DNA of 64,000 nt from assembly GCA_049999805.1 (NCBI GenBank), contig JBNGIO010006099.1, positions 295,243 through 359,242 on the forward strand. Direction: 5' to 3'. The stretch comes from Folioceros fuciformis. Its lineage: Eukaryota. Under the pieces are notes generated by a model. It saw only the letters and a program-made list of their open reading frames with translations. It did not search any database and was not told the DNA's origin. The position numbers and the translations under genes are program-made. Shown here piece after piece: positions 3,603 through 26,640 of this stretch (positions are counted from its first letter, which is position 1; each line of letters begins with the position of its first letter).

Positions 3603-4221
3603 AAACAGAGAGCAACTTTTGATCTCTGGTTGCTGCTAGTCTACAGCACTTAGCCCAGCTTGATGGTCCTCTTGGACCTCTTCCTCCCAAGACAAACATC
3701 GCTGACCTACAGCTCTCATCCTCCTGGCTCGTCCACGCTCCGGTGTAACCCTAGCAGGGACGTTCCTCGATCGCAGATGATAACGTGGGCTGCCTTCAGG
3801 CTCCTCGCGTTGCATAACCTATGCAACAACTCGCACACAAACGACCAATTCTCAGCGAGAGGTGGCATGCAAGCACACCTATTAGAGAACCCTATATGCC
3901 TCCCCAGCACAAAATAGTAAGCACAACTGCTCTAGATTTGATCATGCAGCAACACCCACAATTCCCTATGTCTGCCCTAGGATTTAGGAACACAGCATAG
4001 CAAAACTCCAGCTCACATGTGAAGATTGCAGCACACGGCCTTGCTCACTCGCGATGCCAGATCAAAAATCAAAACAAATGCAGCAAGAGCAAAACCCTGT
4101 TGTCCAAAGCTTTCAAATGCAGTCAATCCCTGGGTAGGGCTTCAAATCGCACACAAAGCATACCAAATTGCTTGCCTTGACAAGGCGCGTCAAATGGTAT
4201 AAGAAGAAATGGCAACCAACC

Positions 4222-4935
4222 TGTAATGCGGGCACTATGAGCCCTGGAAGGTTGGTAACCCTAAACTTGTTAAGTCAGCGTTGCAGCTGGCGTCTGGCGA
4301 GATGGGGAGGATGGCGCCTTGCTGTAGGTGCGTCACCACCTCTTCTAAGCCCAGATGCGCTTAGATCTTGCAGCTGGTCATCGAAGTGACATGAAATCTG
4401 CTCACACGCAGGTTTCTGGACGTTTTTGTTGGAAGAACTTGATTGACGGGCTGCCTATGCCAGGCAGCTTGGAGTCGGGTAAATGACACCGGGTGCTGCA
4501 GCGAGATACAAAGAACATCAATCCTTACAACTCTTGAGCCCAAATATGGCCGGAACAACAAAAGCAATTAAGTTTCTAAGATAGCGGCAGGCACTCTCCC
4601 TTGGTGCGACTTCGATGACAAGCGGCCTCCATCTCCATCTCCAGGATTTAGCGTGGCGGCCATGGCTGACGTCAGCAATTCTGGTGCGGGCTTGCCTCTT
4701 TGAGTCATGCTCATTTGGTTGGGCTCACACTCTCGGTGTGGGCCCACGGGTTTCAGCAGGGTAGCTACAAGCATGCCCTAATCCACGTTCTCTAGTTTTT
4801 GGTGTTTACTAATTACTGTTGAGCGTTTGCTAATTGCCAACATTTAAATGGCATTATTCTAAACTAATCCTTATTTAAAGGATACTTATTTCACGCTGCT
4901 TACTCAACCTTGAGCTCACCTTTGGTATCGTGACA
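4222..4935 (-). repeat. Putative 5' LTR (~714 bp) of the Gypsy-like element
   Basis: Minus strand reads TGTCAC...GCATTACA, then GGT-TGGTTGCC as a PBS-like TGG. The priming tRNA was not identified and there is no second LTR to confirm the ends. Confidence 0.45.
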
Positions 4936-5113
4936 AGGCACGAAACCCGAAGCGCCATGTCGTCATGATCATGTCTTTGTTTGCATCATGCTAAGCGCAA
5001 AGTCACCGTGGTATCCATGACCTGAGATCTAATAATAGAGTACTTGGCCGTAATGGATGCTATTCCGGATCACTATAATCTCACTGCAGCGTAACCGTAA
5101 CTGTTTGTATTCC
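4936..5113 (+). repeat. Left inverted-repeat arm of the MULE (inner part)
   Basis: Reverse complement of 25727-25900, with ~24 mismatches and one 4-nt gap by hand alignment. A 31-bp perfect core links 4976-5006 and 25830-25860. Confidence 0.9.
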
Positions 5114-5272
5114 AGCTGTATACGGCATAAATACCTTGCGCGAGTTACTTGACTATGCCTTATAGCTCACAACGTGGATCAAGTTACATTGCGTGGTTGC
5201 TTGTGTTTTGACAGGACAACATAGTAGTGTGCATTGAAAGCAGGTTTCGTAGTTCACACTCCATAGTGCACG

Positions 5273-8200
5273 ATGAGGATTGATCTCCAAGCGGTGATCG
5301 CTCAATTGGAAGAAGATGAACCTATGCAACTCGGCTATGTGTTGCTGTGCATTGTTGTTGAGGATTATGATGTAGGCTGACATGTGTATCAAGGGTGTGT
5401 TACTTGTTTCACAGCGATCTCCCCAAATGGTTGGTGCAAAAAGTGTAAGGAAGTTGTAAGTGGCAAGCTGCATTATCGTTTACGACTGCTGCTTGCAGAT
5501 TCAAGTTCCAAGACATGGGCAACTACTTTCGCAGCCGGAAGGGATTTTCTAAGGTTTTTTGTTCGCGAAGAAAATATTCAGATTAATATTGTCGTCCTCT
5601 TACAATATCTAAGGGGACCCCTCAGGGGGCCTACATATTTACATAACATGAGCAAAGGATCGGGAGAAAAAAACGACCTCGTGCCCAGCCTCCTGAACAA
5701 GCGAGGAGAAGGCTCCCCACCACCTTGATAATAACCGACTACAAAGACCATCAAGTCTTAACCCTCAAAATCCCCCGAGGGCCATGGGGCTCACCTTCCC
5801 CAAGGGTAGGCGTGATTCCAATGATCGTCATTTCCAGTAACTAGGAAGCCTGCCAACCTGCATTCACTCCGCTTGAACTATTTCCAATGGGACTGCCTCA
5901 GACTTTCTGCCGCAATTAGTATATGCTCCCAAAGGGACCAAAGTAGAGCCTTAGACGAGGCTGGCTCCTTACCTCCATAGACCACAGCAGACCAGTTGAC
6001 CCAAAGATGAAAAAAGCAAGAAGACCACAATAAACCCCACCGTTGCATCTGAAGTAGAGCTTTGCCCCAGGTTGAATCCAACCCAAAGAGAGCAGTTTGT
6101 TTCATAATCCTGAGGCTAGTGCCAGGGAGAATCCTTTGCAACCAATTGCCCACCTCACTCCATACCTCTTGGGTAAACTGCAGTGGAAGAACATGTGCTG
6201 GCTTTTGTTTCGGGCACCAGAGGAGCACAGTCGACACTGGTCTTCTCCCGTAGCAACCAACAGCCCATCCCAACGATCCGCATTAGGCAAACAAGCTTGA
6301 AAAAAGCACCAAACCGTCGCCCTAACCTTGGGAGGAATACCTACTGACTTCCAAAGCAACTTGATTGCTTCCCTTTGTCGCCTCACAGATAATTGTAGCC
6401 TGGGAGCCATTGGTTGCCGTTCCTTGAGTTTCTACGCTCGTACCATCCAGAGGAAGATGTCCGCCATTGGGAAGTTGAAGAAGGACCGAAGGTTGACCGT
6501 CTTGCACCCTGGCCTCCTGGGCCACTTGTAGAGATCTGGTCTTAAGGCCAAATCCCAATTTTCAGCGAGCTGAAACCAACATCGCACGACTGGTTTGCTT
6601 AGGATTTGCGACCCACTAGAACGTTCGACTTGAGTGCACCACCGCCCTGCGCGCATAGACTTTGAGAGGACCGTGATGGCCCTTAGTTCCCCTCTTCGGA
6701 CATCACCATCATCCCTGCTCTGATTTTCCAAAAGCCCTTCAGGCGACAAGACCTTGAATAACCGCAATTCTTCTTTGTCAGCCGTACCTGTAAGCCAAAC
6801 TGCCCTATCCAATTCTAGGTCATCCTCCTGCTCATTCTTCTCAGAGTCGACTCCCTTACTATCCATGCAGTACACATACCACCCCTCGGTGCCCCGGGTA
6901 GGTTGTTGCCTCAACACCTGTTGTACGTTATCATCTAACCCCTCTTGCAACCATGAAAAAATGAGCCAAACATGTCTAGTTACTAATCCAAATTCACCCT
7001 TGACTTCCTCCACCTCCTTCCAGCGGGCCTCTGTTTTGTTCCATAAGTGACCAAGCTGGATAACACCTTGCCGACACGCCAATCCAAAGGTTTGTGACCA
7101 TACACCCTTGCCCTAAACTCTTGAGCCCACAACCTTGAGAAACCTTGTAAAGGAACACCCAGAACATCATCAACATGCACAGGGTTACTAGGGATAATGC
7201 ATCGATTAATCTCTAAGTAGCTACTCCAGATTGACTTGAATAGTGGGGAGCACTCTGCCGTATCAAGAAGTGGTTTATCAGCAAGGATGTTGTTTATAGA
7301 CCTCCTTCCCCTTGGGACAGCTTGGGTGCACTCCAAATGTTGTGTTAGCAGGCTCTTCCAAGGGTAGTAGGCAGGATCCCCCGCCCTGACTACCCACTGA
7401 GCATGCAAGACTTTCATCTTGGCAACCGGATCGACCATCCCAAGCCCCCCCAAACTACGTGCCTGAATAATGTGTTGCCAAGCCACCTTAGAGGACCCAA
7501 CCAAGCTATCCCCCGCACACTTCCACAAGAAAGAAGTCAGCATCTATTGCAACCGTTTCACCTCTGTCTTGGTAGAGGCCCATAAGAACAAATAATACCA
7601 TAGCGAGGCTGATAGGATATGATTAATCACCACCAACCTTCCTGCAAGGTTAAGCTCCAACAGCTGCAAGCTCGCCACTTTACGAATGAATCTGAGGCAC
7701 ACATACTTACCTATCTCACCGTTCTCATCTCCCTCTTGGACGGGAAGTCCCAGATATTTGTGAGAGCACCCCTGCGACACCCTCCGAATGTGTCGAATGC
7801 ATGGAGGTAACTCCCGTTCCATGTGCAAACACATCATACGAGTCTTACTCCAATTAACCTTGCACCCCGACAATTCCCCAAAGATCTTGACCTATTGGAG
7901 TAGAGCTGTCAAAGAGGCCTCCTCTGCCGAGGAAAAAAGAAGGGTATCGTCTACAAAGGCAGAGACCCTTAACTGCGATCCGTTTGGGTTGCGAATACCC
8001 TTGACCACCTGGTCTTGTTTAACTGCTTGTAGGAAGAAGTCAGTACCATAATAAATAAGAATGGAGCAAGGGGGCAACCCTGACGTACCGACCGATGAAT
8101 GCCAAACCGCTCCGTAAAGGTTCCATTGACCGCAACCTTGGCCCCTGCATCTTCACACAAAATGGCGATCCACCTATAGAAGTTATTCCCGAACCCAAAG

Positions 8201-11200
8201 CTATGCAAGCACCTCCACAAAAAGTGCCACTCAATGGAATCATAAGCCTTGTAAAAATACAGGGAAATGAAAACGGCAGCTTTCTTTTGAACCTACGCAT
8301 TATACTTAGCTTCCCACAAGAGTAGAAGGTTGTCCAAGATGCATTTGTTCTGGATGAACCCCGCTACTCTTTCTCAATCCAATCATCCAGAAAAGGCTTA
8401 ATGCGGTTAGCCAGAACCTTAGCTATAACCTTGTACGTAGTTGTAAGCAAGGTGATTAGATGCCAATTGGAGATCGATAAACTGGCGTCCTACTTAGGGA
8501 GCAAGGCGATGACCCCCATGTTAAACCAACTCCCCATGCTGCCTTCCTCCAAAATCATGTCCGCCGCCTCCATGAATAAAGGCTACATAAACTCCCAGCC
8601 CCACAACAGTATCTCGGGCGGGATACCATCGTGACCCGGGGATTTATTCCTTGGCATCCTCTTCAGAGCCTGCAGCACTTCATCTGCAGTAATTGGCTTA
8701 TCCAACTCCTGACGTTGGACTTCAGACACTTTAGCTGAAAGTGACCCGTAGGCTGCCGCCCAGAGCCGCTCCCACCCTGCCACCGCTGGAAAAAATTCCC
8801 ACATACAAGAGGGTGATGAGTTTTCTCAAACCTTCAAGCGAAACCTGCACCACTCCTTGCATGTCCGGGAGAGCAGAGATGCGCGACCTGTGCCGGTTAG
8901 TAGCCACCTTATCGAAAAAGAATTTAGACGAACCGTCCCCTTCCTTCAGCCATTCAACCTTTGACCGTTTAAACCACCCTCTGGCTTTGTCTTCTTCCAA
9001 TTTGGCTAAGGCGCATTGCACCTCTATGTTTCGGGCTTCTTCTTCGATTGTGAAGTCCCGCTCCTCACAACTCCTTTGTAGCCAACCTAGTTCCTCTCTC
9101 CAAACACATTCTTGCTAGCGCAGTTCCTTCGCCCTTTGGACCCCCTGTTTCCTCAAATACCTAGTCGCGACATTGTAAGCACATATCAATCTGGACACAG
9201 CAGGCTCTTCCCCCTGTTCTATTCCCTGCCAGAGGTTTTTGACCTCCTCGAACACACCTTTTTCCTTAAGTAAGGACGTGTTCATCCGAAAGTTTTGCAT
9301 ATGCCTCCTCTTCCTCTCCAAGGCAGGGGCAAGCCTCAAGTGCAAGCCAATAGGGTGATGATCCGACAGGATCGTACCAGCAAGGATATTGTATGACTGC
9401 ACAAGGGGTAACCAACCAGACGGAACATAGAATCTGTCCAATCTGTGCACTCCCAAATTCCGCTGCTGTTGGTTAGTCCAACTAAACGGTTTAGGGTTTA
9501 GGGTTTACCCAACTAAACCCAACTGACGGTGCGCTGGGAGGGCCAGCCACGGATCCTGAACAGCCAAGACATTATTTCTCAGTTCCAGCCAAGACATGGG
9601 CACCGACCGAATATCTACTGAGCTCTCTCCACGGATATCTTCCCATCTTTCAACAAAGTTGAAATCCCCAGCCAACATCCACGGTATCTGCTCATCCAGC
9701 TGTTCCCCCAGCCTACCCCAGAGACTACTCTTGTCAGAGGTAGCGTTGGGGGCATAAATATTACAGATGCCAAGTGGGCCTTGAGGTGTTTGTAGCACCA
9801 GCCACACAAACCTACCACCCTCATCTTGACCCGACTCCAAGATATTGTGAGTGTGTTCTGGGTGAACAGTTATGGACACCCCCCCCGTCGGGTTGTTGAT
9901 GTTCGTTGAGTCGGAGAATCCCCTCTGCTTGCTTCCTCTACTCTAGTTGCCACCCATTCAATTCGACCTGGAAGGAAGAGCTTCTTCACTTTTTGGATAT
10001 GCTCCATGGAGAGCTTATGCTCTTGCAGGCAAACAACATCCCAAGTGACCTCCTATTCTAACAGGTGCTTCAACCTCCTACACTTTGAAGCCGTCTTTGA
10101 CCATCCCCCTAAACCCCTCACATTCCATGAGATGATTCGCAAGTGCGTCCCCCTCTCATAATTTTTTAAGGTGTCGAGTCCCATTTATCAGGATTTGCTT
10201 GAGAGCTTCTGGACCGCAGTAGGTTTAGGCATCCTAGCCCCAGACATGAGTCTAGACCGAGACAACTGATTATTAGCTTTAAGGTCTAGAGACATTCTTT
10301 GAAGCCGTTCAGATTTATAGACTGCAGGCGCACACCTCCTGCCCTCAGCACTTAGGGTTTAGGGTCCCGTACAACAACACCTTCTGTCAAAGCGAGAAGG
10401 CTATCTACTCTTACACCAAAGCGTGGTAGCTTACTACTATTGAAGAAGTGAGAATCCACCTTAGGCACTTCCACCACCCTGCTAATAACCCCCAACATAT
10501 GGCGGATCATTGGGACGAGTTGAACAGGCAAGGCCGGGAGACCCACCCATAAAAATGCCGCTTGATTGTAGATCGCATGATCGTAGTCCCTGGAGACCAG
10601 GCCTCCACCAGCACCGGGATAGATCCTCGAAATGACTCCGTTGTTTGCAAGAGGTCTGGGCTCCAACTGCCTCATCGCACTTAATCTGAAAAGAACCATC
10701 TGCCTTCAGGAAGACATACGTTGGGGGACAGCCCGTTACTCGTAGCACCCAGTCTTCCAATTCCCCCACTGTAGGAGGACCTCCAGATAGCAGCCTTCCC
10801 ACGACCGAATTGGCAGCAAGATTGTCCTCCTCTTTTTGGAAAAATCTTGCTTCCATGAGAACGTCCGCCAAGGGGCCAAGCTGCAAACCTGAGCCTTCTT
10901 TTGTTGTTCTCGAGGCATAATCTTGAGTGGTGCCCACCCGAGTTTGTCCTTGAGCATAGTCCACCTCAAGTGTTTGTACCTGCGAGTCTTTCTCTGTCGC
11001 GGGTTTTGTCCAACTAGCATCAAGAAGGTTAGATTTCGTCAACACCGCATTTTTCCCCTGCACCTTCTATTTATTAGCACACAAACCGACCACTGCCGCC
11101 CATGTGCCACCTGCCGAGCCCCCCCGTGGGGGGCTCATCGCCTCCATTGAGCCACCGAGCTATCAACCCTCTGCCATGGGTGGAGCGAGCCTCACCACCC

Positions 11201-11736
11201 TCACCATCTCCACTTGTGTGCTAGAGACTAGGGATTTTATGAGGTTGACTCCGGAGGAGTTCAGTATGAAAGAAGTGAGAGGAGAAGCGTCAACTTCGCT
11301 TAGAAGGCTGCAAGGAAGGCATTTCTTTTGCCTCTTCTCCATTAAGAGAGCCACTACTCACCACCCTGCAAGTGTTATTATTTTACGAGAGGATGCAGTG
11401 TATATGCAGATGCAGGACTTGTTTCCAACCATTTCAGAGCTAGGGAGTACACTAGCTAGACCACACCTAGGAAAACCATGTGCTAAGAGCCCAAGAACAC
11501 CAAGCATTGAAGGTTTGTCCTTAAGTGTCTTAGACACAGCCATACCCACATCTTCTCATGCAAACATGAATTTACAACTAGCAAACAACCCTTTGTCATT
11601 GTCTGCTGCTCTTGTCATTTGCTCCTGCTTATCCATATTAGGGGCTATAGTGATAATGTCCCACCCAACTACCACCCTTGCCACTATTTCTCTCATACTT
11701 TGCCTTGCAGGCATTGCATTGTGCTGGCTTTTGTAA
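5273..11736 (+). pseudogene. RPA70 C-terminal (Rep_fac-A_C)-like OB-fold/C4 zinc-finger gene split by a LINE (5273-5556 + 11247-11736, ~257 aa)
   Basis: Reads MRIDLQAVIAQL..VG*HVYQGCVTCFTAISPNGWCKKC..HYRLRLLLADSSSKTWATTFAAGRDFLR|LTPEEF..LRRLQGRHFFCLFSIK. This fits the RPA1 DBD-C pattern (Y-x-x-CxxC..CxxC..Y-x-L..D..W-x-T-x-F). One TGA at 5378 is probably from CGA. Confidence 0.75.
5557..11229 (-). mobile_element. L1-clade LINE, internally deleted and degenerate
   Basis: 17-bp TSD with 2 mismatches: AGGGATTTTCTAAGGTT (5540-5556) and AGGGATTTTATGAGGTT (11230-11246). Contains an ORF1 fragment (~11165-10365), APE endonuclease (IISWNV, NIYAPN, GDFN, RLDRF, SDHHP), RT (KSPGHDG, RQGCPLAP, FVDD) and zf-RVT. 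The 3' end is TTTTCTTCGCGAACAAAA. Confidence 0.95.
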
Positions 11737-11773
11737 GACTTTCCCATGTTCTATATTTGAAAAACAAAAGGTG

Positions 11774-12020
11774 TGGCTTAAAGTGGAAGCGTCTTTTGTC
11801 CATCCATGTAATCACAAAAATGGTATATGTACACACATTCATGATTCCAGCAAGCAATAATGTTACCTTCTTCGCGAAAAAAATAATGAAAACTACCTGG
11901 TTCGATATTTCAATGCTAAATCTATGGCTTGAAGTGGAAGCATCTTTTTGTCCATCCGTGTAATCACAAAATGGTCTATGTACATACATTCATGATTCTT
12001 GCAAGCAATAATGAAGACTA
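11774..12020 (+). repeat. Two ~96-bp direct repeats between the convergent MULE genes (11774-11895 with an insert, 11925-12020)
   Basis: TGGCTTRAAGTGGAAGC...CATTCATGATTC..GCAAGCAATAATGAARACTA is present twice. Confidence 0.9.
11863..11881 (+). mobile_element. 19-bp 3'-tail-only insertion of the same LINE family
   Basis: TTACCTTCTTCGCGAAAAA is flanked by a 7-bp TSD AATAATG (11856-11862 and 11882-11888). It is absent from the second repeat copy (12007-12013). Confidence 0.75.
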
Positions 12021-14208
12021 TTTAGTACGATAAAATGCCAAATCTAACAGAAACTATGCTTCAGGTATGTTTATTCCAGCTGCTACACGCTCCATGAATG
12101 ATTGCTCCTTCTTCTGCTTAGAAAGCTTCCAACTACTTTTCGTTTCCCAAGATGCAAGCTTTCGTTTTAAGCTGTTATCAGAATTGGTAGGATCAACCAA
12201 GGTAGGAAGTGTAGGCAACATGGTCTTTGCTTTTGCCTCTGCTCTCAATCCCTCTAGCTGCCTAATCAATTGTTGGAATAAAGCCGTTGCATGTTGTTGC
12301 AAAAAAGGCCACTTTTGTAGCATGGTTGTTAACTGTTGGCACAAAGTTTCCATGTTTGGAGTCGCATCTACTAATTGGCCTATTGCTTGTGTGCATGAAT
12401 GGTCCACTGTGTGCAAGAAGGTAGTTGCACCTTGTCTTGCAGCTACAACCCCTTTGTTATGATAGAGAAACTTCTTCCAAAAGTCTGTGCTTGCATCTTC
12501 AGTAATCGACATGCCAAGTTATTGACAGTGTGTTTGAGCTTGGGCAACCTTGGAGTACTTGGCAAGTAACTTGTGAGTAGGGACTACATTGTCCATTGCC
12601 ATCATGACCTTCAATTGGTGCTTGCACATGAAGCCTCTTGTCCCATGCTTGCATCTGCAATAACCCCATGGTGTTCCCGCACCGCTCACTATATACATGC
12701 ACACACTTCCATGATCTTGACTTTGCACATAAGCAAGGCTAGGAGATACTATGTTTGGCAACAATACATCATTGTCTGCAATGCACAAAGCCTTTTGAAA
12801 GGTGCTCTTTACTATTTGCTCATGCTTTGACTTCCTAAGCATGCCAGCTCCTTTACATTGTGCCACATACCAAAAATGTCTGTTCACTTCCTCAAACAAA
12901 ATGTGCAAAAGCTAGTATAAATGCCGACGATGTAGGGTTTTTTTGGATAACAAGCATCTGTACTTCATATGCTTGTGGTATGCCTCAATAGATGAGTTGC
13001 AATCTTGTCCTTGTCCTGCATGTGGCATTATACGCATAGCTTTAATCCACTGATACATGTTACAACCCCACTGGTCCCTAAAGTACTTAACAAAGCTAGG
13101 AGCATGCTCAAAAAAGGTGTCATAGAAGTGTACCAATTTTTCTTTGCAGGCTTGCTTCACATCAACACTCTCATCAACGTCCATATGCATAATGTCACCC
13201 AAGCACTTCATAATGGCTTGTCTTATGTGGGGTTCTTTACCTTTTTCAACAGTTGCCGTAACCAGGCTCTCCTAACATGCCACAAGCATAAAAGGATTTG
13301 CACAAATGTTCCAAACATAGCATGGATGACATTGATTTCTGCCATACAATCATCTACAAGAAAAGCAATGGGTTGCCATGTAGCTTGATGTTGTACCATC
13401 TTGTCATGCAAGCAATGCAACCACTATGAAATAGTATATGATGTGGCCTTACTTGTGACAACCCAAGCCACAGGAATGCCATTGAAATGGTCATCAAATA
13501 CCAAAACTGTGAAGAGCTGGAACTTCCATTTGTTTGTGCCAAATGTGGCATCCATAGCAATGATCAAGTTGTGACCCCAATAGAGCATTGTCTGCATTTG
13601 AAAATCACTCTAAATGTCGAGCATGAAGTCTTGGCATGGTCTTCTGTTCTTGGTACTGAATAAAATACTTTAGATCTATGGATATCCATCCATAACTTAA
13701 CACTCACCTCATCTCGTGCATGGAAACGCCACACCCTGGCATTAAGTTCAGCTTGTAAATTCCTAATGTCACTAGGAAGGAGAAAATTATCCCTCTAAAG
13801 CACTACTTGTGGATCACCTTGCTTTCGTAAGAAAACATCAGACTTATGATCTTTCATAATCTGAAAGGTTGATGTCTTGCACAACAACTTGTACTTCACC
13901 CATTCTTTTTTGGCCATAGATAAGTAAGGAGCCAGAGTGCATTTTGGACTTGAGTTGATGGTAAGTGCTCCATGACAATACTGCCTTGTGGAATCGATGT
14001 GTGTTTCATGTAATCGTAATTCAGCTACATCATGGAATATTTCAAGTTGACTAACAAACACCAAAAATTGGCATCCACGCTTCTTACTCTCCCCACACAA
14101 CACCTTAGAGCGCCTACTGCCAACACCTGTTTTTGGTTTGTTAGTGAGATGAACACAAATGTCTAATTCCATGAAATTGTATTTTCGGGAACCAAAAGCA
14201 CAACTCAA

Positions 14209-17200: not shown

Positions 17201-20200
17201 TAGAGCACAGATAGTCATGAGAAGCATTGCAGGGTGCGATCAATTAGGCCGGGGGAAAACAGGAGACCTGCTAATCTCCAGCGCCAAAGTTGATCAAGCT
17301 GGGTTTTTACAGGGAGAGATGGAGGTGCTGGCTGGCAATCTCAATGACTTGCTCCAGGCGGTAGCTGCTGATACAACTCGTGGGGACTATACGGCGGGAA
17401 GACAAGGGGAGGACTCAGCCTGTGAGCAACGGCTGAGCTTTGAGGAGAAGAACGTTTTGACAGGAGGTGAACGGGAGGCAACAAGGCAAATAAAAAGGCC
17501 CCTGGCACTCAGAGTCGAGAAGGAGGAAGGTTTTTTCACGGGTGGCGATCCTGAAGTTGTAGTCAATTGTGGAGCCCCGTCGGGAATACCATCTCAGGCT
17601 TCTCCCTTACAGGGCTTGGAGACTTTGTCTCATTCGAACCTGTGTTGGGGTTCAGAGCATGGCAATTCGCATTCGGTGGTGGGCGACGTGTTGGGGAAGA
17701 ACTCTGAGATGGGAGATCAGCCGATAACCAGGGACAGATCTTCCCAGGCGGGGAATTCTCAGGGAGGGGAGGTTCTTTTGACCGGAATCCCCCCAGCCAA
17801 GCTCAGCACTGAGAATTTTGTTACAGTCCTCGGGGTTGTCAGCGTGGGATATCAGGTGGAGGAACGGCATCGCGAACGAAATGCCAGTGGGCCTGAAACC
17901 TCTAGGGGACTGGGGGTTAGTGATGAGCTTCCGGTCCAGCAAGGGGAGAAGGATCTTGGGTCGGATGAAGCACCAGCAAGGGGAAGGGCCAGCCACAGTT
18001 GGTCATAAGTTGATGAGGCGTTGCTGGTCACAGTTGGACAGGTCACTGAGGACCAGACAAAGCAGATCCTGGCAGCGCTCAAGATTCAGCAGGATGAAGA
18101 ACCACGCGATTCTTCTCTGCTGAATAACACGATCGCTTGGTTGGCAGCTGGCCCACAATCAAAGCTTGGAGTTGCTAAAGATCTCCCAGAGGTTTGCTTG
18201 CAAGGCGCTCCCTCCCCATCCTTGGAGGCGGGGCTGGAGTGGGATGGTGTCTGCCCTGGCGCTTGTGGTGTATTTGGTGAGGGTGACCTAGTTGCCTCTG
18301 GGTTGGATACTTCAGATGGGGAGGAAGAGGTCCTGCCTATCGAGTCTGTCACAAGCAAGCGTCGGTATGGACAGGGACTCTAGGGTGAGCAGCTTGTCCC
18401 CAGCGCCAGCGGGGCCCAAGTCGGGGTGGTTCAGGGTGATGTGACGGATTTGATAGGCAGAACCACCGCCAAACATCTGGTGTTTGAGGAGTTGGATGCT
18501 GATGCGAAACAAGTGCGTGACACAAGTGGGCTGGACGCTGAAGGGGTACTTAAAACTTTTGCATCCAGGACTGAGGGTGAGTATGGGGTGCTCTCAAGCG
18601 ATGCCCCGGTAGTTGGCACCATCACTGGAACGCTCCCAAAGATGAGCTTGCACGGAGTTTCCTTTCGTTCCCAGGCTGCTTCTAACACAATTCTAGGAGA
18701 TGCCTTGGTGGTGGACCAGGTGGAGGATGAGGTTTGTGGACAGGGATCAGCTTTTGAAGTGCAGGACAAGTTACGAGAAGGTGAACGGGAAATAGAAAGG
18801 GTAAAATGTCCCACAGCCGCCAGGATCGGGGAGGAATCTGAGGAATCTTCAGAGGAGGGACGCCAGCCAAGCCTCAAGGGCCAAGAGCTGCAGGTAGGCC
18901 TTGGAGACGCCCATAAGAGCGCGTTATGTGGGTCCCCTGCCTCTAGGATCGCGGAGGAAGAAAGGGCATTCGCAGGGATGAACGCAATTTCCGACACCAA
19001 GATTGGCGCAACAATGGCTGCGCCTTCTCAGGGGTTAGGGGTGCAAGGCGAGGAGTCGTGGTTGCCGTCGGGCTCGAGTCAGGAGCTAGAGCCCAGGACT
19101 CTTGTAGAAGCAGTCGGTGAGGGCGTGCAGAAGTTTTCTGCCTCTCAAATCCATGGGCAAAAACATCCAGGTTCTTCGGTGTTGGAATCATCACTAGGCA
19201 GTAGGTTGGGGCGCCCCGCCCAAACACTGGAGCAAAGGTGGGACCTTGGTTCTGCAGGTGATCTGGATTCAGTCGGGCAATCGGCTCTGGCTTCCCCAAC
19301 TGAGCTAAATGCGCCAATGTCTGGGTGGATACCAGCCAAACAGAAAAACGCAGAGGCATTTGTGGGGAAGAGGTCCAGGTTCTCGGATGATCCGATATCA
19401 GGGTGTAAGAGGCAGGACCAGATTGCCTTGGCTAAAGCAAGGAAAGCCCTAAACAGGGTGGTTCAGCGGATGGCCATGGAGAAAACGTTCCCGGAAGGAA
19501 AAAAAGGTCAAAGTAGTGGAAGGGATGAGGGGTGGATACCGGATGCAAGGGAAGGGCTCAAATGATGAGAAGTTGGATCCCTTGATAGGGGGAGAGAACT
19601 GTAGCACTGAAGAGCGACTGAAGGCCAGGGAGGAAGAAAACGGCTTAGTCGGTTTGACAAAGGCGTTGTCTAAGGGCGGAAGCCCCATCATGCGCGAGAA
19701 CGCAGTCTATATTTCTGAGGACGACTTGTTCTCAACCTCAACCCCATGTACAGGCGAGGAGGAGGAGGGGGAGCCTGTCTAGCATGAGGTTCAAGGAGGA
19801 GGGGGAGCCTGTCTAGCATGAGGTTCAAGCGGTTTTTTCAGGAGATGAAGGATGTATCTCTCCATTGCGTTCCTGGGAGAAGAGTCGGGATCAGGTTAAG
19901 ATGGCGAAACAATGGGTTTTCGCATCCGGGCAGGAGAATCCTAGAACGATTCGTTGACAGGGAAGTCGGATGCCGGAAAAAACAGCCAAGCGCAAAGGTC
20001 AACACTTCTCAGTGCACCTTACGGTTACGAGGAAGATGCACCTTACGGTTACGAGGAAGATGCAGGACACTTAATCGTACTTGGTTAAGTTAGGAGACGA
20101 GGGGGAGTTGCTTCCTATCCTTATTCCAGTGCTGCAACTTTACTTGGGGCAGGAAAAGATTTTTTGGAGCATTGTCTTCCGGAGGGGTGCTTACGAGTAA

Positions 20201-23200
20201 AGAAGGCAAGGAGGTGAAGTTCTTCAGTGGGGTTTATCAGACGGGTGAGCGATATTGTGCTGATATCCACCTCATATAGGCATGTGGTCCAACTATGCTG
20301 CTTTCTCCCGACTGGAGGTGGACCCTGGACGTGCCATGGGAGAAGGATTTGGATGTGGTAGTTGGAGATCCTGATAGGCTCACAAGAGATGGGGGTAGAA
20401 GGAGTGCACCTGTCGTACAAAAATCTGAAAGACTTCAAAGAATGTCCCTCGACCTTAAAGCTAACAATCAGCTGTCTCGGTCTAGGCTCATGTCTGGGGT
20501 TAGGGTGCCCAAACTTGCTGCGGTCCGGAAATTCTCAAGGAAGACCTGTAAAATGGGTATCGACACCCTAAAAAACTATGAAAGGGGTTTCACCTGCCAA
20601 TCATTTCATGGAATGAAAGGGGGTCTCACCTGCCAATCATTTCATGGAATGTGAGAGGCTTAGGGGGTTGGTCAAAGATGGCCTCGAAGTGTAGGAGATT
20701 GAAGCACTTGTTAGAAGAGGAGGTTACTTGGAATACTGTTTGCCTATAGGAGCATAAACTTTCTACAGACAATATCCAAAGAGTGAAGAAGCTATTCCTT
20801 CCAGGAGAACAGAATAGGTGGCAGCCAGAGTAAAAGATGTAAACAATAGGGAGAGCTCAACTTAGGGAGTATCAGCAACCCAAGGGGGCGTGTCTATAAC
20901 TGTTCATCCAGAACACACCCACAATATCTTGAAGATGGGTCAAGATGAAGGGGGTAGGTTTGTGTGGCTAGTGTTGCAAACACCTCAAGGCCCACTCGGC
21001 ATATGTAATATCTATGCCCCCAATGCTCCCTCTGATAGGAGCAACCTTTGGTGTAGACTGGGGGAACATCTGGATGAACAGATGCCGTGGATGCTGGCTG
21101 GGGATTTCAACTTTGTTGAAAGATGGGAAGATATTCGAGGGGAGAGCCCTGTAGATATTTGGTCGGTGCCTATGTCTTGGCAGGAACTAAGAGATACCGT
21201 TTTGGCTATCCAGGACCCTAAGCTGGCCCTCCTAGCGCATTGTCCACCGCAATCCTTGAAGTTCAGCTGGACTAACCAACAACAACAGAATTTGGGAGTG
21301 CGCAGGTTGGACAGGTTTTATATTCCCTCTGGGTGGTTGGTCTGTGTGTAGGAGTACAATATTCTTGCTGGTACGATCCTGTCTAACCATCACCCAATTA
21401 GCTTGCACCTGAGGCTTGCGCCGGACTCGGGGCGGCAAAGGAGGCATACACAAAACTTTCGGATGAATACGTCCTTGCTCAAGGAAAAGGGAGTGTTTGA
21501 GGAGATCAAAAACATGTGGCAAGGAATAGAGCAGGGGGCATAACCTGCTGTTTCCAGATTGATATGCGCTAACAGTGAAGCGACCAGGGACTTGAGGAGG
21601 CGGGGGGTCCAACGAGCGAAGGAACTATGCCAACAAGAGTGCTTTTGGAGAGAGGAACTAAGCTGGTTGCAAAGGATAGGGGAGGAGCACGACTTCACAA
21701 TGGAAGAAGAAGCCCGACAAACGGAGGTGCAATGCACTCTAGCCAATTTGGAAGAAGACAGAGCCAGAGGCTGGTTTAAACGGGCTAACGTCAAGTGGGT
21801 GAGGGAAGGGGACGGCTCGTCCAAGTTCTTCTTCGATAAGGTGGCTACTAATCGACACAGGGCGAGACTTCCTGCTCTCCCAGATGCCCAAGGAGTGATG
21901 CAAGAGTCGGTGGAAGGTTTAAAAAAGCTCATTACCTTCTTCTTTGTGGGAATTTTCTCGAGTGTGGGGAAGGTGGCGGGGTGGGAACAACTGTGGTCTT
22001 CTTCCTACGGATCACTTTCGGCTAAGGTGTCCGAGGCTCAACGCAGGGCGTTGGATATGCCGATTTCTGTGGATGAAGTACTCCAGGCGCTGAAGGGGAT
22101 GCCGAGGAATAAATCCCCGGGGCATGATGGGATCCCGCCGGAGTTTTTGCTGTGGGGCTGGGAGTTTATGGAGCCTTTATTCATGAAGGCGGTGGCCATG
22201 ATCTGGGAAGAGGGTAGCATGGGGAGTTGGTTTAACATGGGGGTCATCACCTTGCTCCCTAAGCAGGACGCCAGTCTTTCAATCTCCAATTGGCGCCCAA
22301 TCACATTGCTTACAACTACGTACAAGGTGATAGCCAAGGTATTGGCCAACTGCATCAAGCCTTTCATGGACGAGTGGATCGAGAAAGAGCAGAGGGGGTT
22401 CATACAAAATCGATGCATTCTGGACAACCTTCTACTCTTGCGGGAAGCTAAGTATAATATCCAAGTTCAGAAGAAAGCAGCAGTCTTCATCTCCTTGGAT
22501 TTTTATAAGGCTTATGATTCCATCGAGTGGCACTTCTTATGGAGGTGCTTGCGCAGCTTTGGGTTCCGGAATATCTTCTGTAGGTGGATTGCCATTTTGT
22601 GTGAAGATGTAGGAGCCAAGGTGGCAATCAACGGAGCGTTTTGGCATTCATAGGTCGGTATGTCAGGGGTGCCCCCTAGCTCCTTTTTTATTTATTATTG
22701 TGACTGACTTCTTCCTCCGGGCAGTGAAGCAAGATCAGGCTATCGAGGGTGTTCGCAATCCGGATGGATCGAAGCTAAGGGTTTCGGCTTCTACAGACGA
22801 TACCCTTCTTTTTTCCTCGGTAGAGGAGACTTCCTTGAATGCTTTGCTCTAGCAGGTTGAAGTTTTTGGGGAGCTGTTGGGGTGCAAGGTTGATTGGGGT
22901 AAGACCCGCATGATGTGCCTAAACATGGAAGGGAAGTTGCCTTGATGTATCCAACACATTCCGAGGGTGTCGCAGGGGGCCACACACAAGTATCTGGGAC
23001 TTCCCTTCCATGAGGGGGACGAGAATGGTGAGATAGGGAAGTATGTATGCCTCATATTCATTCGTAAAGCGGCGAGCTTGCAGATGTTGGGACTTAACCT
23101 TGCAGGAAGGTTGGTGGTGATTAACCATATCCTAACAGCCTCTCTATGGTATTATTTGTTCTTGTGGGACCCCTCGAAGGCAGAGGTGAAACGATTGCAA

Positions 23201-25197
23201 TAGTGGAACCTCATTCCTGTGGAACCGTGCGGGGGATTACTCGGCCGGGCGCTCCAAGGTGGCTTGGCAACACATTATTTAGGCACGATGTCTAGGGGGC
23301 CTAGGGGTGGTGGACCCGGTTGCCAAGAGGAAAGTCTTGCATGCTCCATGGGTTGTCAGGGCGGCAGATCGTGCCTACTACCCTTGGAAGAGTCTGCTAA
23401 AGCAACACCTAGAGCGCACTCAAGCTGTCCCTAGGGGAAGGAGGTCTATTGACAACATCCTTGCCGACAAGCCATTGCTGGATACTGCAGAGTGCTCCGC
23501 ACTCTTCAAGTCAATCTGGAGCAGCTACTTAGAGGTCAAGCAATACATTATTCCTATTAACCCCTTGCATGTTGATGATGTTCTAGGTGTGCCTTTGCAA
23601 GGATTCTCGAGGCTGTGGGCTCTTGAGTTTAGGGCAAGGGTATATCGATCTCAAATCTTCGGGTTGGCTTGTCGGAAAGGAGTTATCCAACTTGGTCACT
23701 TATGGAATAGATCAAAGGCTAGTTGGAAAGAGGTGGCGGAGGTCAAGGAAGAATTTGGCTTAGGGGCTAGACATGTTAGGCTCATTTTTTCATGGCTGCA
23801 AGAGGGACTAGACGATAAGGTTCAACAGGTTTTAAGGCAACAACCTACCCTGGACCCTAAGGGGTGGTATACATACTCCATGGGTAGTAAGGCCGTCGAT
23901 TCTGAGGAGGATGATCAGGAAGAAGACCTAGAATTGGATAGGGCTGTCTGGCTTTCAGATATGGCTGACAAAGAGGACTTGCGGACATTCAAGGTCATGT
24001 CGCCGGAGGGGCTTTTGGAAAGTCAGGGCAGGAACGATGGGAAGGTCTGAAGAGGGGAACTCCGAGCCATCACGGTCCTCTCTAAGTCTGGTCGTGCAGG
24101 GAGTGGTTCACTCAACTTGAAGGCCCTCGTGGATAACCAACCTCGGACAAACCAGCTGTCCGATGTTGGTTCCGGCTTGCGGAGAATTGAAAGTTGGCAT
24201 TAAGGCCAGATCTCTACAAATGGCCCAGGCGTCCAGAGTGCAAGGTGGACGGCCTTCGGTCGTTCTTCAACTTCCCAACAACGGGCGTATTCCTCTTGCT
24301 GGTGCGAGCGCAGAAAATAAGACAATAGCAACCAATGGCTCCCCGATTATAGCTGTTTGTGCGGCGACAAAGGGAAGCTATCAAGCTACTTTGGAAGTCA
24401 GATGGAATTCCTCCCAAGGTTAGGACAACGGTTTGGTGCTTTTTCCAAGTTTGTTTGCCTAATGCGGATAGATGGGATGGGTTGTTGGTTGCAACGGGAG
24501 AAGATCAATGTCGACTGTGCACCTATGGTGCACCAAACAAAAGTCAGCACTTGTTCTTCCACTGCAGCCTTGCCCAAGAGATATGGAGTGAGGTGGGCAG
24601 GTGGTTGCAAAGAATTCTTCCCAGCACCAACCTTAGGATCATTGAACAAACTGCCCTATTTGGGTTGGATGCAACCTCAGGCAAAGCTCTACTTCAGTCG
24701 CAATGGTGGGGGTTACTGTGGTCTTCTTGTCTTTTCCATCTTTGGGTCAATTGGTCCTCCGTGGTCTATAGAGGAACGGTGCCGGCTTCATCCAGGGCTC
24801 TTCTTTGGCAATTTGGGAGCACTTATTGATTGCAGCAGAAAGTCTGAGGCAGTCCCATCGGAAATGATTCAAGCGGAGAGAGTGGAAGTCGGCAGGCTTC
24901 CTATTTCCTGGGTATGAAGAACACTGGAATCACGCCTGCCCTTGGGGAAGGTGAGCTCCCATGGTCTTCAGGTGAATGTGAGGTTTAAATCTAAATGGAC
25001 CTAGTAGGTGAATGGTCTGAGCAGGCTGATAGTGTTAGGGTGATGAGGAGCGTTTTCTACGTCCTGTACTGAGGTCTGGACATGAGGTCGGTTTTTCCTC
25101 CTGATCATGGTACTCATGCTTTGTAAATACGTGAGTAGGGTCCCCTTAGTATTGTAAGAGGATGATAATATTAATTAGAATTATTTTCTTCGCGAAA
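14209..25197 (+). mobile_element. Near full-length L1-clade LINE (~11 kb), degenerate
   Basis: Perfect 15-bp TSD AAAAGCACAACTCAA (14194-14208 and 25198-25212). ORF1 has a DUF4283-like region and knuckle CRVCGVHNHLKQNC (~15115). Endonuclease ~20630-21420, RT ~22080-23020 (KSPGHDG, NWRPITLL, LDFYKAYD), zf-RVT ~24360-24600. The 3' end is TTATTTTCTTCGCGAAA. Confidence 0.95.
16503..16602. other. Assembly gap (100 N)
   Basis: Run of 100 Ns; the true size is unknown. Confidence 1.
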
Positions 25198-25726
25198 AAA
25201 AGCACAACTCAATTTCATGTAATGGCAAGGAGTGGTTGGAGAGATTGCATTTTGCGTGATGCTTGACCGTGTCCACACGCTCACCCTTACAAACTTCGTT
25301 GGAAAGAATTTTGATGCCTCCTCCTCATGATGAAATCTGCATATCTTCCCCATGGAATGTAACAAGTTTTGACGGGACTAACTTTCTTCGTAACTATGTG
25401 CACATCATCTTGCCATTCGAGGGTTTCCTTTGAGAAAGGTCTTTGGCAAGGAGTCTGAACAATGAAAGGGCATGTTTGTGGCTGAACGAGAACATCTGCA
25501 TTTCTACATCCAACTTCCATCATGATCTTTGGAATTAGAGACAACCCGATTGTTCAAGTTCACTCAATCGACGCACTCAATTGTGCACGCCGCTTTGGTG
25601 TGCACGTTGCTTCGGACGCAATTCGGAATAGCAACATGCGCGGGATGCCTTGCATTTGTGGCTTAGAACATTTGAAAGGTAGTTGTGGTGTCTCCTCTTC
25701 AAATTTCCGCGCCGTAGATGTATACA

Positions 25727-25900
25727 GGAATACAAACAGTCACGGTTCCGCTGGAGTGAGGTTACAATGATCCGGAACGGCATGCATTACGGCCAGGCAC
25801 TCTGTTATTAGAGTTCAGATTATGGACATGTGACTTTGCGCTTAGCATGATGCAAACAAATACATGACCATGTCCACCTGGCGCTTAGGGTTTCGTGCCT
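25727..25900 (-). repeat. Right inverted-repeat arm of the MULE (inner part), with a telo-box AAACCCTAA at 25885-25893
   Basis: Inverted copy of 4936-5113. Confidence 0.9.
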
Positions 25901-26640
25901 TTAGTTACTTTGTAGTGACGAATAGCGCCTGGCGCTAGGCCCCCAGGGTACTGTGGACGCCGGGAACACCGGGACGTTGGTGGTTGTCTGCGAGGCCGGG
26001 ACACGGGGGCGTCGGTGGTTCTCTGGGACGTCGGGACACTGGGTGGGCAGTGGTCTCTCGGGACGCCAGTGCGCCGGGACAATTGCGTTGTCGGAAGCCC
26101 GGGATACTCGCAACATGTGCGGGCCGGGACACTCGGTGCGCCCGGACGCTTAAGATCTCAGCGTCGGCTTGGCGGTCGGAAATGTACTGGTCGCCCGTGT
26201 ATTGAGTGCATTCAACCACGTCTGAAGGTCGTCCGGCGCACTAGCGGATCCAGGGCAACGACAACCCGGGATGTCTACAAGACGAGCCGCGATAGCCCGG
26301 CCAGCACTCGGGACGGCTGCAGTCCTCCGAAGTTCTGTAGCGCGTTCGCGGGGACCCTGGGACATTCGGGATACGTGGACGCCGGGACACTTTAGGGCGG
26401 CGGACGCCGGAAGTTCTTCGGGCAGCCGGGCCGCCTGGAATGTGATGTTTGGCTGTGCCTAGTCGAGTGCATCCAGCCACGTCGCGGCGTCCAGGGTGCT
26501 CGCGTGCTCGGGACGATGACGAGCTCGGACACCAGCAAGGCAGGGAGCCTGGCCAGATCTGGGACGCCGGGACGATGAGAGCGAACCCCTAGGGCTATCC
26601 GGACGCTGGGACCACGAGGGTGAACAGGGCTACCGGACCC
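25901..26640. repeat. GC-rich array of GGGAC-core motifs; probable outer part of the right TIR or subterminal region
   Basis: More than a dozen GGGAC cores on one strand, with larger diverged repeats (26192-26240 vs 26451-26500; 25946-25970 vs 26368-26392). It directly continues the inverted repeat. Confidence 0.55.

Follow-up and report, generated by a model that had tools for sequence, protein, structure and literature searches.

The locus analyzed here raises the question of whether a Mutator-type DNA transposon can carry, as its second gene, a relative of the single-stranded-DNA-binding protein RPA70. It lies in a 64-kb stretch of genomic DNA from Folioceros fuciformis, referred to below as the window. 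It has long been asked why a second gene is required by some Mutator elements, and to our knowledge the second genes mudrB, vanB, and vanC have no shared fold or origin. An initial annotation, made from the letters of this DNA, had proposed that a two-gene Mutator family with an RPA70-C-like gene is hidden here behind two LINE insertions. We therefore examined the anatomy of the locus, the identity of both genes, and the distribution of related copies in the same organism.

A Mutator-like element split by two LINEs

The locus is a dead, decayed copy of a plant Mutator-like DNA transposon (MULE). When whole, the element measured ~4.3 kb and was bounded by ~180-bp terminal inverted repeats, and it was later split by two L1-type LINEs, one in each gene. 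Its features, in window coordinates, are as follows.

4935–5113, plus strand: left terminal inverted repeat of the MULE, identical at 152/179 positions to the reverse complement of 25727–25901
5273–5556, plus strand: second ORF, part 1, with ATG at 5273, an in-frame TGA at 5378–5380, and a CxxC-x11-CxxC zinc-ribbon motif; weakly RPA70 DBD-C-like (Rep_fac-A_C)
5540–5556, no strand: LINE 1 target-site duplication (17 bp), left copy, repeated on the right at 11230–11246 with 15/17 bases identical
5557–11229, minus strand: LINE insertion 1, 5,673 bp, of the same family as insertion 2
11247–11736, plus strand: second ORF, part 2, continuing the frame of part 1 to a TAA stop at 11734–11736; no recognizable domain, with a hydrophobic helical C-terminal hairpin
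11774–12013, plus strand: two copies of an intergenic direct repeat (11774–11862 and 11925–12013), 90% identical over 90 nt
12054–14208, minus strand: 3' part of the MULE transposase gene, with MULE/RNase-H-like core (Pfam MULE), SWIM-like motif, C-terminal region, and TAG stop at 12054–12056
14194–14208, no strand: LINE 2 target-site duplication (15 bp), left copy, repeated on the right at 25198–25212 with 15/15 bases identical
14209–25197, plus strand: LINE insertion 2, 10,989 bp, with DUF4283 and RVT_1
25213–25523, minus strand: 5' part of the MULE transposase gene, with ATG at 25523 and a frame change near 25340–25377; rejoins the 3' part at 14208
25727–25901, minus strand: right terminal inverted repeat of the MULE, pairing with 4935–5113

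Joining 4935–5556, 11247–14208, and 25213–25901 yields a LINE-free element of 4,273 bp, as the initial annotation had predicted from excision of both LINEs at their target-site duplications. The gene order that it gave (repeat, plus-strand ORF, direct repeats, minus-strand transposase, repeat) is likewise recovered. The plus-strand ORF rejoins across LINE 1 as GRDFLR/LTPEEF and the minus-strand ORF reads through the LINE 2 junction as KLSCAF/GSRKY, where the slash marks the junction. The two ORFs are convergent, and their stops lie 317 bp apart. Start codons had been placed ~160–200 bp inside the repeats, and the measured distances are 160 bp on the left and 204 bp on the right. Between the ORFs, the direct-repeat families D1, D3, and D4 share a period of 151–152.

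The terminal inverted repeats align over 179 bp (4935–5113 against 25901–25727) with 85% identity and a K2P distance of 0.153. This distance presumably corresponds to ~6 Myr at 1.3e-8 substitutions per site per year, a grass rate that may not be that of the host, and we do not rely on this age. Repeats of MULEs may already differ when an element inserts, so their divergence is an unsure clock. No further copies of the repeat were found within the 64-kb window. The initial annotation had also asked for intact copies with target-site duplications of 9–11 bp. Around the window copy, a scan of 17 × 33 boundary offsets at lengths of 8–12 bp returned none that is convincing. The best candidates matched at 7/8 positions, or at 7/9 with the boundaries moved by 4–9 bp, and none is flush with the repeat ends. 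Given the 15% divergence between the repeats, the element may have had a target-site duplication that has since decayed. The long terminal inverted repeats together with the MULE domain described below place the element in the Mutator superfamily, and its anatomy in the window is confirmed.

A true but inactivated MULE transposase gene

The minus-strand ORF, about 820 codons long, encodes a true MULE transposase, but it is dead. The Pfam MULE profile (PF10551) matches 13226–13609 on the minus strand over profile positions 1–96 of 99 with 43.5 bits (E = 4.6e-11; cut-off 27.6), a score obtained with one in-frame TAG read as X. When the two halves of the domain are scored apart, they reach 25.1 and 16.2 bits. 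The ZSWIM1-3_RNaseH-like profile scores 34.3 bits on the same stretch, again with one stop read as X. The MULE match and the long repeats uphold the DDE/MULE assignment made initially. Furthermore, the translated minus strand of 12522–12911 shows a CxC-x8-CxH motif, for which Pfam reports no SWIM family.

The reading frame is interrupted by four in-frame stops (13795–13797, 13424–13426, 12912–12914, and 12519–12521) and three frame changes (within 13567–13609, within 13226–13271, and near 25340–25377). The initial annotation had not mentioned these lesions, nor the in-frame TGA of the plus-strand ORF. Pfam detects no family in the 5' part (25213–25523) and no FAR1 domain, the corresponding region being interrupted by LINE 2. 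By eye, the N-terminus of the transposase appears FAR1/WRKY-like rather than MURA-like; a Pfam model confirms neither. A word-indexed protein search at longer lengths with a 405-residue piece of the transposase found no relatives. No Rep or helicase domain was detected by Pfam in any element piece scanned.

The second ORF and its likeness to RPA70 DBD-C

The plus-strand ORF spans ~257 codons and is intronless, with its own ATG and stop and in sense orientation relative to the repeat. In the window copy it is interrupted by the single TGA noted above, and the rejoined stop-to-stop frame is 221 codons long. Since this length was not attained in any of 300 mononucleotide shuffles of the LINE-free element (maximum 214), a chance ORF is unlikely.

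Part 1 was scored alone against the Pfam profile Rep_fac-A_C (PF08646), giving 21.2 bits (E = 2.7e-4) as a 58-aa piece and 20.9 bits (E = 3.4e-4) as a 94-aa piece, both below the curated cut-off of 28.5. The aligned profile positions (14/17–73 of 146) represent the zinc-ribbon half only, with the ribbon and a strand on either side of it, and the second half of the profile (74–146) has no match in part 2. All four zinc-ribbon cysteines are present inside the profile-aligned stretch (residues 41, 44, 56, and 59 of the 94-residue translation). In NCBIfam, part 1 matches a single family at E ≤ 1, namely rpa1, over positions 473–529 of 608 (E = 0.21), which agree with those of the Pfam match. Similarly, a search of the ESM Atlas with part 1 ranked an unnamed cluster first and Rep_fac-A_C clusters second and third at 0.89, and the ten best family-bearing matches all belong to one family or clan. 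These named matches share 155–167 features, so that both guide values (0.9 and 170) are undershot.

Comparison of the 94-residue part 1 with 1.84 billion representatives by phmmer returned no RPA at E ≤ 1e-3, and the two matches obtained are unrelated Cys-repeat proteins. A phmmer search of the PDB likewise returned no RPA, giving two chance matches with E of about 1. Relatives of the ORF were also absent from word-indexed protein searches, run for part 2 among proteins of similar length and for part 1 among longer ones, and from two metagenome scans with parts of the ORF. The profile results weakly suggest an origin of the N-terminal half of the second ORF in DBD-C, the zinc-ribbon OB domain of RPA70, followed by divergence until it is visible to profiles only. 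Just one of the four OB domains of RPA70 is present in the element. Because no RPA was recovered among the 1.84 billion representatives, the ORF is not a recent capture from a host. That its frame is nearly open despite this large divergence suggests that it evolved as coding sequence.

Part 2 has no profile matches (Pfam at E ≤ 10, NCBIfam at E ≤ 1), and its residues 1–80 have no usable match in the ESM Atlas. When modeled by AF2 from the single sequence, part 2 has a pLDDT of 47.7, with values below 50 for residues 1–112 and of 75–79 for the two terminal helices; its hydropathy rises to 2.2. Residues 16–69 are modeled as helix-strand-strand-helix at low confidence, to which we give no weight. 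Part 1 modeled in the same manner has a pLDDT of 46.9, and the quality of both models is insufficient for structure searches. Of the RPA70-C likeness originally assigned to the whole ORF, the zinc-ribbon half survives as a weak call and the second half is unmatched. The profile and structure checks that had been recommended gave a sub-threshold Rep_fac-A_C match and uninformative folds, respectively.

Related copies in the same organism

Public contigs of the same organism were available from two runs of one sample (X1 and X2) and from a possible RNA run (X4). All 30 depth bins are covered in both X1 and X2. Depth in X1 is 191–282 over the second ORF and 98–285 over the transposase, values that do not equal copy number and are read only as multi-copy. 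Each run contributes 3–9 diverged contigs over the listed sites, which fall in the repeat (5027 and 5044), in part 2 of the second ORF and just behind it (11373 and 11742), and in the transposase (12151, 12579, and 13111). The element DNA belongs to a multi-copy family in F. fuciformis.

Some contigs skip LINE 1, joining 5518 to 11230 (X1 and X2) or 5556 to 11272 (X1), and the boundary of LINE 1 is therefore supported from outside the window. At least two other copies lack this insertion. Because all parts of the element are multi-copy and at least two copies are free of LINE 1, the second ORF is a feature of the family. This outcome goes against a one-off capture, the possibility that the initial annotation had itself raised as contrary to its proposal. 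No contig links the second ORF to the transposase, the longest pieces listed being <500 nt. A second full copy of the element was not found in the public contigs of the organism.

In other transposase copies an extra base follows 13234, as seen in three contigs of X1 and three of X2, and another follows 13631, in six contigs of either run. By frame arithmetic, these bases would restore the broken frames of the window copy, and less damaged copies therefore exist. The second ORF varies in length among copies as well. Near the joint, the two copies without LINE 1 show length differences of 1 and 4 bases relative to the window, and by eye each of these breaks the frame. Among the four further differences listed for part 2, only an added TGT at 11478 is in frame, and skips of 130 and of 43-with-11-between are out of frame. 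By eye, five of six length differences in the second ORF are frame-breaking, a pattern that would fit neutral decay. In the X4 run, 7 of the 30 bins have no cover, all in MULE parts, and this run is uninformative on expression.

Comparison with known transposon systems

Set beside the familiar element sizes and intergenic repeats of MuDR, the element is alike in size class, in its ~180-bp terminal inverted repeats, in the length of its transposase, and in having a small convergent second ORF. Both genes begin shortly inside the repeats, with repeats between their 3' ends, and the MuDR-like two-gene layout that had been noted at the outset is borne out. Passages on MuDR describe MURB as an accessory protein that is required for new insertions and binds the N-terminus of MURA (PMC12973397; PMC6446971). 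MURB is without known domain, whereas the second ORF here is weakly RPA70 DBD-C-like.

The placing of a SWIM-like CxC-x8-CxH motif behind the MULE core recalls Jittery/FAR1-type (JITA) transposases, a likeness drawn from motifs and domains. Repeat lengths of 39–292 bp are given for the Jittery group, a range that includes the present element, and the plant Jittery subgroup is listed with one ORF (portions of PMC6446971). In contrast, the element has two ORFs and no Pfam FAR1 domain.

RPA-like genes are known as cargo of plant Helitrons, whose proteins (PHRPA) occur in monocots and dicots and form a separate clade, according to sections of PMC4683698, PMC7385966, and PMC9033089. As in these Helitrons, the transposon here would carry a relative of RPA70, a single-stranded-DNA-binding protein. 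However, it moves by cut-and-paste, has terminal inverted repeats, and encodes a DDE/MULE transposase but no RepHel, which differs from carriage by a Helitron, and only a DBD-C-like domain is recognizable.

Autonomous MULEs can also hold host-derived extra genes, often antisense to the transposase, such as the Ulp1 genes of KI-MULE/VANDAL, VANC, and the antisense PMD ORFs of the MuDR group (as treated in parts of PMC13317346 and PMC6446971). The present element resembles these in that an extra gene is carried and amplified by a MULE, and differs in the domain. Pack-MULEs share a host-gene-derived fragment between MULE repeats. They have no transposase, whereas this element has a (broken) transposase gene, and its cargo is a compact ORF that begins and ends with codons of its own. 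Among active plant TIR elements, a survey recorded numerous domains of accessory proteins, including 335 that occurred a single time (PMC12973397). The main texts searched do not name Rep_fac-A_C, although supplementary Table S6 of PMC12973397 may do so. With that table as a possible exception, the literature searched, supplements excluded, contained no Mutator element with an RPA-like gene, in line with the claim made initially, and the pairing of a MULE transposase with such a gene seems undescribed before.

Competing explanations for the second ORF

We favor the reading that the locus is a decayed member of a two-ORF MULE family whose second ORF, in a mudrB-like position, derives from RPA70C and was ancestrally an accessory gene acting on single-stranded DNA, and we give this a probability of about 0.42. 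A distinctly possible alternative, if short of probable, is that a MULE ancestor transduplicated an RPA-like fragment from the host or a Helitron, which has since been idle and decaying in every copy. Gene capture by MULEs is common (passages of PMC13317346 and PMC6446971), and such passive cargo would agree with the presence of a single RPA70 OB domain, the in-frame stop in the window copy, the preponderance of frame-breaking differences, and the lack of protein relatives in our searches. The indels decide little, since neutral decay is expected of dead copies even where the master gene works. Against passive cargo, the ORF spans the apparent start of the domain and has its own ATG and stop, and it is intronless and sense to the repeat, unlike the genomic fragments of typical Pack-MULEs. 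It is also too diverged from any RPA among the 1.84 billion representatives for a recent capture, yet 221 codons are open.

We consider it unlikely that the ORF is not related to RPA at all, being a lineage-specific second gene like mudrB or vanB, or a chance frame, in which the CxxC...CxxC pattern produces a spurious Rep_fac-A_C match. The sub-threshold Pfam score, the two Cys-repeat proteins returned by phmmer, the unnamed top cluster and undershot guide values in the Atlas, and the unmatched part 2 would all be in keeping with this. However, Pfam, the Atlas, and NCBIfam agree on the family and on the part of the domain, including non-cysteine positions that flank the ribbon, and the Pfam E value becomes about 0.01 after correction for the ~40 pieces scanned. 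The shuffles speak against a chance frame. Finally, it is very improbable that an RPA-like piece sits in a single copy as a chimera, or is a Helitron remnant beside the MULE. The lack of a second full copy among the contigs and of a target-site duplication that would define the ends of the element would be in keeping with this, but the ORF lies between both repeats, its DNA is multi-copy with two other copies free of LINE 1, and the element lacks Rep and helicase domains throughout. Helitron-remnant and one-off-capture origins were accordingly rejected, as they are largely refuted by the multi-copy ORF DNA and the LINE-free copies.

A possible role for the RPA-like gene

Under the favored reading of an ancestral accessory gene, the family ancestor would have captured or inherited a single DBD-C domain in the form of a gene without introns that had an ATG and a stop of its own. 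Intact master copies may then have expressed the accessory protein from a terminal-repeat promoter. This small protein could bind single-stranded DNA at the excision gap or at the transposon ends, alone or paired with host RPA32/RPA14 via the DBD-C trimerization surface. Repair might thereby be tilted toward restoring the element from its sister-chromatid copy, or reinsertion might be helped, in parallel with the need for MURB in new insertions. An accessory function is plausible, and a transposase-binding accessory gene product is documented for MuDR (in portions of PMC12973397). With both of its genes dead, the copy in the window is no longer capable of the proposed role.

A stronger version, that the family has or recently had intact FAR1/SWIM-type masters elsewhere in the genome, is doubtful. 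The repeat-driven second gene of such masters would specify an RPA70C-like zinc-ribbon OB protein of one domain, to which a hydrophobic hairpin may be added at the C-terminus. If true, no earlier accessory protein of a cut-and-paste plant transposon would be known to bind single-stranded DNA, and the gene would be either independent of or borrowed from the Helitron RPA-like gene. It would also suggest that the element manipulates a single-stranded intermediate or a step of gap repair, and would connect Helitrons with TIR transposons through their accessory genes. Since the accessory gene would have a recognizable activity (single-stranded DNA binding of the RPA70 DBD-C type), the hypothesis would be testable: through an effect on host RPA, or on the resected gap left by excision, the element would draw a net replicative gain from cut-and-paste transposition. 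With a dead copy and a weak domain call, and no demonstrated system, the present value of the locus is as a lead for the full genome.

The LINE insertions

The two insertions are L1-type LINEs of one family in opposite orientation, and they align with 88.5% identity along 797 nt and with 81.3% along 4,640 nt. Their alignment is interrupted between 15050 and 20613 by ~5.5 kb of extra sequence in LINE 2 (15051–20612), within which lies an assembly gap (N run, 16503–16602). In Pfam, LINE 2 matches RVT_1 with 72.9 bits (E = 3.9e-20), DUF4283 with 26.3 bits, slightly below the cut-off of 27.2, and Exo_endo_phos weakly (18.4 bits, E = 0.0019). At the 3' end of the LINEs, a short A run adjoins the target-site duplication, and the 5' ends of the two copies diverge before 11162/14255. 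Contigs diverged from LINE 1 are numerous among the public contigs of the organism, including those of the possible RNA run.

Architecture of the collapsed element

The initial annotation described a two-gene Mutator-like element (MULE) at 4936-25900, interrupted by two LINEs and carrying a transposase gene and a convergent second ORF (ORF 2). This anatomy was borne out. Excising both LINEs by script yielded an element of 4,273 bp, in agreement with the ~4.3 kb claimed, and both ORFs rejoin across the joints. The terminal inverted repeats are identical at 152 of 179 positions (K2P 0.153), both start codons lie at close to the predicted ~160-200 bp inside the repeats, and the short direct repeats noted between the ORFs are present as two copies.

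Features of the collapsed element (position, strand, feature)
4935-5113 and 25901-25727, terminal inverted repeats
5273, +, ORF 2 start (ATG), 160 bp inside the left repeat
5556 to 11247, +, ORF 2 across the LINE 1 joint (...GRDFLR joined to LTPEEF...), frame runs through
11734-11736, +, ORF 2 stop (TAA)
11774-11862 and 11925-12013, direct repeat between the two stops, ~90-nt unit in two copies, 90% identical
12054-12056, -, transposase stop (TAG)
14208 to 25213, -, transposase across the LINE 2 joint (...KLSCAF joined to GSRKY...)
25523, -, transposase start (ATG), 204 bp inside the right repeat

The stop-to-stop frame of ORF 2 spans 221 codons, a length reached in none of 300 shuffles of the element (longest frame, 214). 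Elsewhere in the window there is no second copy of the terminal repeat or of the element interior. No convincing target-site duplication of the MULE was found; the best candidates shift the boundaries by 4-9 bp and still mismatch. The left flank (4700-4934) is repetitive in the organism, with 8-9 contigs per sequencing run, all of which differ from the window at 4767. Therefore, the MULE probably sits inside another repeat, and this nesting may be the reason for the lack of a clean duplication. On the other side, a GC-rich 35-bp tandem repeat of about three copies (77-81% matches, 25955-26067) begins 54 bp beyond the right terminal repeat and is followed by GGGAC-rich sequence to ~26650.

LINE insertions

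Both inserts are L1-type LINEs. Each is flanked by a target-site duplication, with 15 of 17 bases identical for LINE 1 (5540-5556 vs 11230-11246) and 15 of 15 for LINE 2 (14194-14208 vs 25198-25212), and in both a short A-rich 3' end adjoins the duplication. The two belong to one repeat family and lie in opposite orientations, sharing 88.5% identity over 797 nt and 81.3% over 4,640 nt.

Pfam matches in LINE 2
RVT_1 (reverse transcriptase), 72.9 bits, E 3.9e-20
DUF4283 (ORF1-type), 26.3 bits (cut-off 27.2), E 6.6e-6
Exo_endo_phos, 18.4 bits, E 0.0019

LINE 2 is 5.5 kb longer than LINE 1 owing to an extra stretch at 15051-20612, which contains an assembly gap (16503-16602). Within it, the plus strand is G-rich, and there are an exact 34-nt tandem duplication (19760-19827) and long open frames at 16281-18008 and 18384-19565, neither of which matches a Pfam family. 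Either another nested element or an extended form of the LINE could account for it. Contigs from X4, a public run of the same organism labelled as possible RNA, cover the LINE family over 5700-10500 at 80-90% likeness with internal skips, and the parts of the MULE have no X4 cover. The LINE family may thus be transcribed, if X4 is indeed RNA.

Transposase gene

By its sequence, the minus-strand gene encodes a MULE transposase, as the initial annotation had proposed. With an in-frame TAG (13424-13426) read as X, the residues of 13226-13609 align to positions 1-96 of the 99-position Pfam MULE profile and score 43.5 bits against a cut-off of 27.6 (E 4.6e-11); the same residues match ZSWIM1-3_RNaseH-like at 34.3 bits. 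Behind the MULE core, 12522-12911 encodes a CxC-x8-CxH motif, for which the Pfam scan reported no SWIM family. LINE 2 splits the N-terminal part, which appears FAR1/WRKY-like by eye; no model in the profile scans confirmed this. A FAR1 N-terminus together with a SWIM C-terminus would suggest membership in the Jittery group (Dupeyron et al. 2019, PMC6446971), for which this element is a candidate. However, plant Jittery elements are tabulated there with one ORF, whereas the element here has two.

The window copy is dead in both genes. Each gene is interrupted by a LINE, and the transposase frame shifts three times (near 25340-25377 and inside 13567-13609 and 13226-13271) and meets four in-frame stops (13795-13797, 13424-13426, 12912-12914, and 12519-12521).

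Weak RPA likeness of ORF 2

ORF 2 had been described as RPA70-C-like, a claim that held in part. Its two portions on either side of LINE 1 were scored and modelled separately. Part 1 has an in-frame TGA at 5378-5380, 36 codons past the ATG. The 58 residues of 5381-5554 match Pfam Rep_fac-A_C at 21.2 bits (E 2.7e-4) and the 94 residues from the ATG at 20.9 bits, both under the cut-off of 28.5. The alignment begins at profile position 14 or 17 and ends at 73 of 146; it takes in the CxxC-x11-CxxC zinc ribbon together with the strand that leads into it and the strands that follow. The sole NCBIfam family at E<=1 was rpa1 (E 0.21, positions 473-529 of 608), corresponding to the part matched by Pfam. 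In the ESM Atlas, Rep_fac-A_C clusters ranked second and third in nearness to part 1 (0.89), with a POT1 insert cluster lower. The ten best family-bearing matches all belonged to one family or clan, as was also the case for one third of shuffled proteins.

In contrast, part 2 (11248-11733) has no match in Pfam (E<=10), NCBIfam, or the Atlas. No RPA was recovered by phmmer against the PDB, and a phmmer search of 1.84 billion representatives returned two matches only, both unrelated Cys-repeat proteins. Single-sequence AlphaFold models of either part reached pLDDT values of 47-48. The evidence for RPA likeness is consistent but thin; part 1 probably does descend from an RPA70 DBD-C-type domain.

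The last ~50 residues of ORF 2 (11590-11733) form two strongly hydrophobic helices in the prediction (AF2 pLDDT 75-79, Kyte-Doolittle up to 2.2), which is odd in an RPA-like protein. This C-terminus may not be conserved coding sequence, because other copies carry frame-breaking indels just upstream.

Other copies of the family

We placed contigs from runs X1-X4 on 4700-14300 at >=80% likeness. X1-X3 are DNA runs from one sample, which is possibly the source of the window's own assembly. X1 and X2 contain roughly half of the 31-mers of 11247-14208, and contigs of both runs cover all 30 bins. The placed contigs are mostly diverged from the window. For X1, 298 of 2,620 contigs (LINE included) are >=99% alike and 1,887 are <95% alike.

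Contigs differing from the window
Left repeat, sites 5027 and 5044, 3 per run
ORF 2 part 2 and just behind, sites 11373 and 11742, 7-10 per run
Transposase, sites 12151, 12579, and 13111, 4-10 per run

Position 5518 is joined directly to 11230 in one X1 and one X2 contig, and 5556 is joined directly to 11272 in one X1 contig. These joints skip LINE 1, and therefore at least two other copies carry ORF 2 without it. Their existence largely rules out a one-off and independently confirms the LINE 1 boundary. Near the joint, the two LINE-free copies are shorter than the window by 1 and 4 bases (read by eye), each of which would break the window's frame. In part 2, an additional TGT at 11478 keeps the frame (5 contigs in each of X1 and X2), and two other length differences break it (one skips 130, the other skips 43 and has 11 letters in between).

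Other copies are also one base longer than the window behind 13234 (3 contigs apiece in X1 and X2) and likewise behind 13631 (6 apiece). By our own frame arithmetic, these are the shifts that would mend two of the three frame changes of the window copy; thus, less damaged transposase copies exist. The contigs are short (listed pieces <500 nt), and no contig connects ORF 2 with the transposase or with a terminal repeat. In run X3, C>T and G>A differences are strongly over-represented (330 and 549 places), a pattern that suggests bisulfite-type conversion or a damaged library; the differences of this run from the window were given no weight.

Accessory gene or passive cargo

The initial observation is confirmed and its interpretation partly supported. 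This copy is a fossil, and the domain call is sub-threshold. The robust conclusion is that the element is a degenerate copy from a multi-copy MULE family with a compact ORF in the mudrB position, the first half of which probably comes from an RPA70 DBD-C-type zinc-ribbon domain. Two readings of this ORF lie close together, and we tentatively favor an accessory function (probability roughly 0.4). ORF 2 starts at an ATG of its own a short way inside the repeat, covers the apparent domain start, is intronless, and runs in sense to the repeat. Furthermore, its frame is still nearly open despite divergence from every RPA of a large library, a divergence that excludes recent capture from the host. 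The next candidate, that ORF 2 is passive cargo, is a real possibility of somewhat lower probability: a single domain is present and no more, the indels seen among copies are consistent with neutral decay, and protein searches found no relatives.

If ORF 2 is an accessory gene, analogy with MURB suggests how it might act. New insertions depend on MURB, which binds the N-terminus of the transposase (PMC12973397). One possibility is that the ORF 2 protein binds single-stranded DNA at transposon ends or at the excision gap; another is that it pairs with host RPA32/RPA14 via the DBD-C surface. Either route would favor sister-templated repair or reinsertion.

In the literature, RPA-like genes are attributed to Helitrons (PMC7385966, PMC9033089, PMC2773423, PMC4683698), and plant Helitron RPAs are reported to form a monophyletic clade (PMC4683698). 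The extra genes described for MULEs are mudrB, mutB, vanB, vanC, and antisense PMD ORFs (PMC6446971) and Ulp1 (PMC13317346). A survey of accessory proteins in active plant TIR elements mentions 335 further Pfam domains seen once and tabulated in a supplement (PMC12973397). Fungal MuDR-like elements carry Fanzor (PMC3627910). A search of the main texts of full-text articles found no Mutator element with an RPA-like gene. If the gene is real at the family level, this would be a two-gene MULE with an accessory domain different from the known ones.

Other features of the window

The window is plant nuclear DNA, and its region 33000-61000 contains exons of host genes.

Host gene exons (position, strand, gene)
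34210-35127, +, FtsZ
36198-38543, +, LRR receptor kinase
42274-43182, -, PTR2/NPF transporter
55038-58574, -, NFACT
60039-60941, -, START/polyketide-cyclase-like protein

A 553-codon open frame at 1974-3635 (-) matches no Pfam family except for a faint zinc-knuckle match (E 0.046); possibly it is a gag-like ORF belonging to a different repeat.
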